A DNA stretch of 64,000 nt, from assembly GCA_041659945.1 (NCBI GenBank), contig JBAZXH010000001.1:693364-757363 (forward strand), read 5' to 3'. This DNA is from Candidatus Pacearchaeota archaeon. GTDB taxonomy: Archaea > Nanobdellota > Nanobdellia > Pacearchaeales > GW2011-AR1. The stretch's first letter is position 1. Every line of letters begins with the position of its first letter. Below, in pieces: positions 18,813 through 20,016 of the stretch. The notes beneath the pieces were generated by a model that saw only the letters and a program-made list of their open reading frames with translations, had not been told where the DNA came from and made no database searches. The position numbers and the translations under genes were made by a program.

Positions 18813-19955
18813 TTATTTTCCAACTAAAATAGGTGCATAAATATCTTTTGGATACCAAAGAGGAAACACTTCCAAATATTGTTTTCTTTTGTAAGCCTCA
18901 TGTTGTACATCAGGATCTTCATTTCTTTGTTTATGATCAGCTATAGTTAATATTTGAACTTCTACAGGTATTCTTTCATAATTTGGGAAGTCAAGCGGAT
19001 ATGGAGGCCCAATGTTTGGAATAGGAACTGAGGGTCTTACAAGAAATTTTGTACATCCAAATTTTGAACTTGAGTGTTTGCTTCTTTTGTCTGCTTTTAT
19101 TGAATCCTTGAACTTCTCTAAAACGCCAGTTCCTCTAATATGGCAACGGAAATAATTAACAAGATCCCTACAGGAAGCGTCATCTTCAACAATAAATTCT
19201 ACTCCCGTTAAATCATTTACTGTGTCCATAAATTCTCCTTTTAGAAACATTTTCATTAATAAAGAACCATACTTTAGTTCACCATCAGTTGTTAATATTT
19301 TTAACCTTGATCTAATAGGTTTTTTATCTGAGCCATAGACTCTTACTCCAGATTTTGTTTGCCATGAAACTGGAAGATCATCGATATCTGTTGGAACTTG
19401 ATCTGAAAACGCAAACTGGTTATTAAACCATTCAAGAGCAGTGTTATGGTGTCTTATTGATCTTATAACTTCTGGAGAGGTATCTATTTTTAAAATCCAA
19501 TAACCTAAACCCCAGTTTCTAACTTGTTCGTAAGCTTTTCTTAATTTTTCTTTATCTATTTTACTTCCGTGTTTTCCATTCCTTGCTTCTATCCATTCAT
19601 CTCTTGCTGCTCTTGTAAATTCAAGAAGGTCTGAGGCTAGGTTAATCTCAGGTATTAAAAAAGGCTTGCCTTCTTCACCTAAGTTTTCTTGACAGAGAAA
19701 GTTTAAGGATCTAATTCCACGATTCATTGACTCTCGGAATAATCCTTGTAATTGATCACTATCAGTAACACCTGCTAAAAAATTATTTCTAATCTGACCT
19801 AAGAAAAAACTTTGATCTCCTGTTTCAATAGCTCTTCTAACAGCTTTAAATCCTAAATATCTACAGTCTGGATTAAAAAAAGCAAACGGAAAAACATTTA
19901 ATACTCTTTCTGGAGTTTTTTGTTCTTGTACATATATCTGGTCTATTAATGTCAT
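18813..19955 (-). CDS. RelA/SpoT-like nucleotidyltransferase domain protein (divergent)
   Basis: C-terminal half shows the RelA_SpoT pattern: DLTGVEFIVEDD ... FGCTKFLV ... VEVQILTIADH ... HEAYKRK. ATG at 19955 preferred, because the track ORF extends to a TTG at 20015 that would overlap the EF-1alpha promoter box. Confidence 0.45.
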   Translation of the reverse strand: MTLIDQIYVQEQKTPERVLNVFPFAFFNPDCRYLGFKAVRRAIETGDQSFFLGQIRNNFLAGVTDSDQLQGLFRESMNRGIRSLNFLCQENLGEEGKPFLIPEINLASDLLEFTRAARDEWIEARNGKHGSKIDKEKLRKAYEQVRNWGLGYWILKIDTSPEVIRSIRHHNTALEWFNNQFAFSDQVPTDIDDLPVSWQTKSGVRVYGSDKKPIRSRLKILTTDGELKYGSLLMKMFLKGEFMDTVNDLTGVEFIVEDDASCRDLVNYFRCHIRGTGVLEKFKDSIKADKRSKHSSSKFGCTKFLVRPSVPIPNIGPPYPLDFPNYERIPVEVQILTIADHKQRNEDPDVQHEAYKRKQYLEVFPLWYPKDIYAPILVGK

Positions 19956-20016
19956 AATGGTTATTGAATAGCTGCTTCTTTTAAACCTTTCTCTCGTCGA
20001 ATTAGAATTAATCAAC

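Follow-up and report, generated by a model that had tools for sequence, protein, structure and literature searches.

An RSH-like gene between two elongation-factor genes

The window analysed here, a stretch of 64,000 nucleotides from a Candidatus Pacearchaeota archaeon, carries a minus-strand gene that lies between the genes for elongation factor 2 (EF-2; fusA, 15528-17717, plus strand) and elongation factor 1alpha (EF-1alpha; tuf, 20060-21346, plus strand) and whose product resembles the RelA/SpoT homologues (RSHs). The open reading frame (ORF) that contains it runs from 18813 to 20015 without interruption, in the ORF list as well as in the translation. The coding sequence most likely occupies 18813..19955, starting at ATG 19955 and ending with the stop codon at 18813-18815, and specifies a protein of 380 amino acids (aa). 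On the evidence of profile matches and a predicted model, the C-terminal domain of this protein (about residues 153-361) has the RSH synthetase fold, and an N-terminal helical domain precedes it. We propose that the protein is a cytoplasmic two-domain enzyme in which the synthetase domain has diverged and would still be catalytically competent.

Fold and homology

PF04607 (RelA_SpoT) is the sole Pfam match of the protein (25.5 bits, E 1.7e-5, residues 229-347), and PF04607.24 is also its precomputed annotation. The protein-level score falls under the 27-bit cut-off of this profile, and the match in the six-frame search of the genome, at 27.6 bits, lies above it. Among 59 family members, 30 match PF04607 independently (E <0.01) and match no other family. 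Compared with 5.8 billion proteins, the family profile reached only five canonical long RSHs outside the family, all with PF04607, and at E values up to 10 it returned the family itself and long RSHs, and nothing else. A profile-profile comparison by hhalign further aligns residues 215-358 with the long RSH P0103 (94.5%, E 7.6e-8).

The predicted structure points in the same direction. An AlphaFold2 model built from the 59-sequence alignment (predicted local distance difference test, pLDDT, 93.4; predicted template modelling score, pTM, 0.91) finds RelP, RelQ and Rel as its best Foldseek matches (E 3e-4, probability 1.0), and its significant Foldseek matches are exclusively RelP, RelQ, Rel or CapRel. 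In VIA-align, a structural alignment independent of Foldseek, the best eight matches are all RSH synthetases, with Z scores of 9.5 (6yxa), 9.1 (7qps), 8.8 (8acu), 8.5 (6fgk), 8.1 (5dec), 8.0 (6ewz), 6.8 (7qpr) and 6.6 (5l3p). Generic nucleotidyltransferases of the Pol-beta type and RsfS stay at or below a Z of 6.3, under the RSH synthetases. The CapRel structure 7ztb is also found among the structural matches (Foldseek E 9.5e-3, VIA Z 6.3).

Because these five lines of evidence (Pfam, family members, profile search, hhalign and structure) agree, we consider the protein to be RSH-like. An earlier note on this DNA, made from the letters alone, had proposed a RelA/SpoT-like synthetase fold from a series of motifs. 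The motifs are all present in the order it gave, and the profile, profile-profile and structural comparisons bear the fold out; the checks it suggested, a PF04607 search and an AlphaFold2 model submitted to Foldseek, both returned RSHs, where it had named the lack of any such match as the result that would speak against the fold. The genome holds a second PF04607 match (L008:1399-2499, contig 1, about 362 kb; 14.4 bits), which we take as spurious, since this 366-aa ORF looks by eye like two Lrp/AsnC-type units.

Conserved active-site residues

Of the residues of S. aureus RelP, R78 and R112 are those that stack on the adenine and K80, S84, K88 and R91 those that bind phosphates; the Mg ligands are D107 and E174, the ribose is bound by H190 and the guanine nucleotide by Y151 of the G-loop (PMC5794853). 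We derived residue equivalences from alignments to Rel 5xnx and to P0103 and from a MAFFT alignment, and counted conservation over the 59 family members, which span 22-73% identity. The phosphate-binding helix is represented by S231-x3-K235 (19251..19265; this and all following features of the gene are on the minus strand), where S231 and K235, equivalent to RelP S84 and K88, are found in 58/59 and 59/59 sequences. In the segment D248-L-T-G-V-E253 (19197..19214), D248 corresponds to the Mg ligand D107 and is invariant (59/59). The ExQ strand E332-V-Q334 (18954..18962) supplies the equivalent of E174 in E332 (59/59), followed by Q334 (57/59), and the HxxYK helix H352-E-A-Y355-K356 (18888..18902) supplies that of H190 in H352 (58/59), with Y355 in 58/59 and K356 in 53/59. 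Since the Mg, phosphate and ribose contacts are kept in 58-59 of the 59 members, the protein is probably an active enzyme.

A further pair of basic residues, R217-x-K219 (19299..19307; both 57/57), is a candidate counterpart of the canonical beta1 RxK motif that binds the triphosphate. The position of the canonical RxK arginine aligns to the variable residue 226, and the invariant R217-x-K219 lies 8 residues upstream of it, where the preceding strand ends; an 8-residue hairpin insert stands between this pair and the Ser helix. A sister family, A5, shows the same order of RxK, insert and YxS, which suggests that the motif has been retained and pushed away in sequence by an insertion. The segment RSRLK, which the earlier note read as a basic helix, lies in the model on a strand that is followed by a short hairpin.

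Altered substrate-recognition positions

The residues that in RelP recognise the bases are a different matter. The counterpart of the adenine-stacking R112 is E253 in 55/59 members, with arginine only in the three most divergent ones, and at the counterpart of R78 the sequence alignments show no conservation. The protein consequently lacks the pair of arginines stacking on the ATP adenine that marks strict (p)ppGpp synthetases. Likewise, the canonical arginine of the QIRT motif is Leu336 here and leucine in 37/59 members. The replacement of canonical arginines, anticipated in the earlier note for this QIRT-to-QILT change among others, is thus confirmed in the alignments at E253 and Leu336.

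The G-loop equivalent together with beta4 comprises residues 284-306 (19038..19106; pLDDT about 86), with N/S292, S295-S296, K303 and F304. In the MAFFT register the position of the guanine-stacking tyrosine is residue 294, a histidine in this protein, where the family has His (14), Ser (8), Gln (6), Ala (5), Tyr (4) and Asp (4); in the hhalign register it is R307. No conserved G-loop tyrosine is found under either register, and the protein departs in this respect too from strict synthetases. Given the altered E253, Leu336 and G-loop positions, recognition of the donor and/or the acceptor would differ from that in RelP, RelQ and Rel.

Domain layout

The N-terminal domain (residues 1-160; 19476..19955) is helical and has no recognised fold. 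Within it, P29 and G80 do not vary, N78, N85, Y142, R146, G151 and D158 are present in 47-57 of the 59 members, and R79 in 42. The full model is predicted at a pLDDT of 93.4 and the domain modelled alone at 75.8; in the full model the domain is predicted with confidence to pack on the catalytic domain (pTM 0.91). Neither Pfam nor NCBIfam has a match to residues 1-160, and atlas look-ups gave low-scoring hits only. The isolated domain has no Foldseek match at E <1, and its best VIA match, with PTS enzyme I's helical subdomain (Z 6.2), is noise for helical bundles. We considered a degenerate HD hydrolase, as in the N-terminal half of RelA-like proteins, and rejected it: no HD or HD_4 profile matches the region, and Rel and SpoT structures align only from about model residue 153 onwards.

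A helix (161-181) and three additional beta-strands (184-208), assigned by DSSP on the model, follow at 19314..19475 and lead over to the core, and W198, T200 and G208 are conserved within this connecting region (161-214). RelQ and RelP are aligned by VIA from about residue 148-160 onwards. The earlier note was right that the N-terminal part is unrecognisable, and its estimate of about 230 aa for that part is replaced by about 160 aa of helices followed by the helix and three strands of residues 161-214. The synthetase (SYNTH) core itself extends over residues 215-361 (18873..19313), as delimited by PF04607, hhalign and VIA.

Beyond the core lies a C-terminal tail (18816..18872) with the motif F364-P365 ... 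P369-K-x-I-Y373, recognised from residue counts and from an hhalign comparison of A3 with A5 and common to the RSH-like family and the sister family A5. The TIGR04552 and TIGR04562 profiles match residues 287-363, directly upstream of this motif, which they leave uncovered. The protein ends 20 residues past the synthetase core and has no match to HD_4, HD, TGS or ACT; in the same test, canonical long RSHs from related genomes match HD_4, TGS and ACT.

The 380-aa family and its relatives

An exhaustive phmmer search of 1.84 billion representatives recovered 78 clusters, nearly all about 370-400 aa long, and the named members come from metagenome-assembled genomes (MAGs) of DPANN archaea. The source genome (1.04 Mb, 4 contigs, 86.7% complete) has its relatives among Woesearchaeota, Pacearchaeota and Nanoarchaeota-type DPANN archaea. 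An even sample of the phylum contains full-length copies in 9/401 genomes, source genome included; among other genomes, 0/27 of the same taxonomic family and 0/2 of the same genus have one. One homologue, in a Micrarchaeota MAG, is divided over two ORFs (L006:5884-6393 and L006:6565-7014), a split that a frameshift or stop, an error in assembly or decay into a pseudogene could explain.

We further note that 41/59 members match TIGR04552/TIGR04562 (best E 6e-12). On the protein encoded in the window these two profiles score 25.0 and 25.9 bits, over residues 287-363 only, compared with curated cut-offs of 125 and 140 bits. Judged by these scores, the 380-aa family is distantly related to TIGR04552/TIGR04562, a relative and not a member. 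Bacterial look-alikes from an atlas (Acidobacteriota) align with a TM score of 0.72 over residues 12-377, which suggests, as a lead only, that the two-domain architecture extends to them. The sister family is encoded in four DPANN genomes (L018:709-2139, L019:1339-2736, L020:1444-2853 and L021:694-2112), measures 465-476 aa and matches PF04607 weakly, at 17-23 bits.

Canonical PF04607 proteins are present in 191/400 high-quality genomes of the phylum (48%), as long RSHs of 620-700 aa that combine HD_4, RelA_SpoT, TGS and ACT; examples of 620-650 aa are found in L023-L028 (e.g. L023:565-2427 and L025:481-2433). The presence of RelA/SpoT in DPANN had already been reported (PMC8407392). RSHs are therefore not rare in this phylum, where the earlier note had supposed such enzymes to be rare in archaea generally. 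A long RSH accompanies the family in 7/8 of its other carriers and the sister family in 4/4 carriers, counts that are confounded by kinship and genome size. Based on the first of these, the 380-aa protein would add to an ordinary (p)ppGpp enzyme and not replace it. In the source genome, at 86.7% completeness, no long RSH and no HD_4 domain were found.

Gene start and promoter

The window is AT-rich (about 33% guanine plus cytosine), and the base composition of the gene equals that of its surroundings. Two groundwater metagenome runs contain window DNA and may be its source; no RNA data sets carrying the stretch are listed.

The Met equivalent to ATG 19955 is the start in nearly all 59 aligned homologues, and for this reason ATG 19955 (380 aa) is most likely the start of the gene rather than TTG 20015; the frame given in the earlier note thus stands, and the start it assumed probably does not. 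Among the homologues, an extension upstream of this ATG, as called here from TTG 20015 (19956..20015), is present only in the closest relative, P0003. The 'FKR' codons common to the extensions of the two genes spell the TATA-like TTTAAAAGA. The segment 19956..20015 is therefore read as promoter DNA that is probably untranslated, with a TATA-like box, TTTAAAA, discernible in the sequence at 19979..19985, 24 nt upstream of ATG 19955. Archaeal promoters follow a spacing rule by which such a distance can be interpreted. Because the box stands only 24 nt before the ATG, we infer that the mRNA of the RSH-like gene is leaderless or nearly so.

The RSH-like gene and tuf diverge from a spacer of 104 bp. 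This spacer contains the palindromic TTTATAAA (20023-20030), which stands 29 nt upstream of the ATG of EF-1alpha, is identical on both strands and is likely to be the TATA box of tuf.

Gene neighbourhood

On its other side the RSH-like gene is convergent with small plus-strand ORFs that follow fusA. There are three of these between EF-2 and the RSH-like gene (17749-18093, 18127-18444 and 18463-18720), without Pfam or NCBIfam matches and without a counterpart beside any homologue. Just upstream of EF-2, in antisense orientation, the minus strand carries a gene for a 667-aa protein resembling acyl-CoA/AMP-dependent ligases (12956-14959), to which fatty-acid-CoA ligase models match only partially and below threshold.

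An all-against-all comparison of ORFs over 13 loci, the window included, revealed no neighbour family common to them. The earlier note called the position of the gene next to EF-2 and EF-1alpha provocative; neither gene is found near the homologue in any of the 12 other loci (0/12), and the adjacency is confined to this window. In 11/13 loci no translational GTPase lies within 6-8 kb. A second translation-gene setting is seen in a Woesearchaeota MAG, where the homologue lies between rpS6e and aIF2gamma (L001:5438-8752). Among the other neighbours are housekeeping genes such as those for ScpA, ScpB, ThiI, RpoE, glycerol-3-phosphate dehydrogenase and a cation-efflux protein. None of the 13 loci shows phage, integrase, mobile-element or defence-island context or a pairing of the toxin-antitoxin kind; no conserved small partner gene is present in them, so that a toxin-antitoxin arrangement finds no support.

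Several members of the 380-aa family and of the sister family adjoin genes for enzymes acting on phosphate compounds: Nudix genes (L002:7095-7499 and L019:861-1259), metallophosphoesterase genes (L003:7338-8033 and L036:9657-10352), a DHHA1 gene (L019:2769-3428) and a Ham1 gene (L021:2907-3476). That these phosphohydrolase neighbours degrade the product or take part in nucleotide-polyphosphate turnover is a weak hint, made post hoc from genes that are not orthologous across the loci. The 380-aa family has no HD neighbour in the loci considered.

Proposed function and alternatives

Starting from the homology, the fold and the conserved catalytic residues, we propose, with a probability of roughly 0.55, that the protein is a cytoplasmic two-domain enzyme with a divergent, catalytically competent RSH synthetase domain; the activity, the chemistry, the substrates and the N-terminal domain's role are what we infer from these. 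The helix of S231 and K235 and the invariant R217-x-K219 would bind a nucleoside triphosphate, D248 and E332 would hold Mg2+, and a beta,gamma-pyrophosphate would be moved to the 3'-OH of an acceptor. Donor and/or acceptor recognition would be unlike that of RelP, RelQ and Rel, so that the enzyme may yield something other than (p)ppGpp. The N-terminal domain may control the active site or help to bind the acceptor. The gene itself would be a stand-alone accessory gene, patchily distributed in DPANN archaea and placed here inside the fusA-tuf string.

Three observations weigh against this proposal. The Pfam score stands at the threshold. Binding of ATP in the canonical mode is doubtful, because the stacking arginine is a glutamate (E253) and the canonical RxK arginine position is variable. 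Finally, no HD-type hydrolase is found in the source genome (86.7% complete), where a dedicated breakdown enzyme is accordingly not evident.

The two likeliest alternatives, unlikely as both are, concern what such an enzyme would make. The first is a plain small alarmone synthetase that produces (p)ppGpp or (pp)pApp from ATP and a guanine or adenine nucleotide, alongside a long RSH. The fold and the catalytic Asp/Glu, Ser/Lys and His are those of RelP and RelQ, bacteria often pair Rel with extra small alarmone synthetases (PMC7229694), in 7/8 of the other carriers the HD domain of a long RSH could break the product down, and Nudix or metallophosphoesterase genes stand beside some homologues. 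This reading is weakened by the glutamate that replaces the adenine-stacking arginine in 55/59 members and by the unconserved G-loop tyrosine, and the source genome shows neither a long RSH nor HD_4 to accompany such an enzyme.

The second, about as tentative, is that a different reaction has arisen on the RSH scaffold, with another donor or acceptor or with a two-metal transfer of the nucleotidyl type, yielding an undescribed signalling nucleotide or a modified RNA end in DPANN archaea. It is suggested by the third carboxylate that the clade-specific change to E253 would add beside D248 and E332, by the loss of the tyrosine and by the new N-terminal domain. If true, it may extend to the bacterial TIGR04552-like relatives.

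We regard as rather improbable a toxSAS-like effector (toxSAS, toxic small alarmone synthetase), such as a tRNA 3'-CCA pyrophosphokinase of the CapRel, FaRel2 or PhRel2 kind, in which the N-terminal domain would be an in-cis inhibitor or sensor acting in defence or conflict. Its patchy distribution (9/401 genomes, 0/27 of the same taxonomic family), the union of a catalytic and an unrecognised domain in one polypeptide and the presence of CapRel 7ztb among the structural matches (Foldseek E 9.5e-3, VIA Z 6.3) are consistent with such a role. The 13 loci argue otherwise, with housekeeping neighbours and no conserved partner, phage, integrase or defence island, and the structural scores favour the housekeeping Rel, RelP and RelQ over CapRel or Tas1.

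Less probable again is an inactive pseudoenzyme or sensor that retains the RSH fold and only binds a nucleotide or alarmone. The replaced substrate contacts at E253, L336 and the variable G-loop position would be compatible with it, but the metal carboxylates and the Ser, Lys and His residues are invariant or nearly so in 59 sequences, as expected of a working site.

Action on the neighbouring translation GTPases EF-2 and EF-1alpha, an idea prompted by the position of the gene between fusA and tuf, with the L001 homologue between rpS6e and aIF2gamma also in its favour, is very improbable, given that 11/13 loci lack a translational GTPase within 6-8 kb, that the gene is divergent from tuf and convergent with the ORFs after fusA, and that the unrelated acyl-CoA-ligase-like insert likewise interrupts the rpo-EF gene string. 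The data thus give no support for a special link between an alarmone enzyme and elongation factors.

On the preferred reading of a divergent, competent synthetase, the 380-aa family retains the catalytic apparatus of alarmone synthetases; both of its substrate-recognition elements have changed, and a new domain has been added. As of 2021, (p)ppGpp had gone undetected in any archaeon (PMC8646023). The family, which belongs to tiny, host-dependent DPANN archaea, may therefore serve as an entry point to the archaeal use of pyrophosphorylated nucleotides, to the role of TIGR04552 and to the drift of substrates on the RSH scaffold.

Comparison with known systems

The protein shares with RelP and RelQ the alpha/beta synthetase fold (Foldseek probability 1.0; VIA Z 8.0-8.5 over 151-160 aligned residues) at a sequence identity of 13-19%, and like them it is a stand-alone synthetase without a hydrolase domain. 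The Mg ligands D107 and E174 of RelP find their equivalents in D248 and E332, and the Ser/Lys phosphate helix and the ribose-binding His are also shared. Unlike RelP and RelQ, it has an additional helical domain of 160 aa at its N-terminus and three additional strands; relative to RelP, Arg112 is exchanged for Glu, the G-loop Tyr151 is unconserved and the RxK motif is displaced by the 8-residue hairpin.

RSHs of the long type (Rel, RelA and SpoT; 6yxa, 8acu, 7qps and 5xnx) match the model best in structure (Z 9.5-8.8) and are the sole outgroup found at the sequence level, with the common motif order S..K, DxxG, ExQ and HxxYK. The RSH-like protein differs from them in having no HD hydrolase, TGS or ACT domain and in the replacement of canonical arginines.

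The RSH synthetase fold is likewise common to the toxSAS proteins CapRel, FaRel2, PhRel2 and Tas1, toxins that act on non-guanine acceptors (the tRNA CCA end, adenine nucleotides). CapRel carries a fused regulatory domain and has a comparable catalytic-plus-regulatory layout. The RSH-like loci differ from those of toxSAS in that they have no antitoxin or immunity gene and no conserved operon, and the structural scores to these proteins (Z 6.3 and 5.9) lie under those to housekeeping RSHs.

With the uncharacterised TIGR04552/TIGR04562 proteins of Myxococcales (e.g. MXAN_4858) and Bdellovibrio, compared by family profile alone, the family has an equivalent position of the C-terminal match and a similar length in common (380 aa against 352-356 aa). 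The differences are the bacterial hosts, scores of about 25-45 bits that lie far under the cut-offs, and a match restricted to about 80 C-terminal residues.

The sister DPANN family A5 differs in its N-terminal region, which is longer and unlike that of the 380-aa family, in a large insert before the ExQ strand, in the absence of a TIGR04552 match and in a lysine at the position of E253 (DxxGxK in place of DxxGxE). The two families nevertheless align by hhalign over 244 columns (98.1%, E 1e-13) and share the RxK motif with its insert and the following YxS-K, the DxxGV and VEVQ motifs and the FPKEIY tail.

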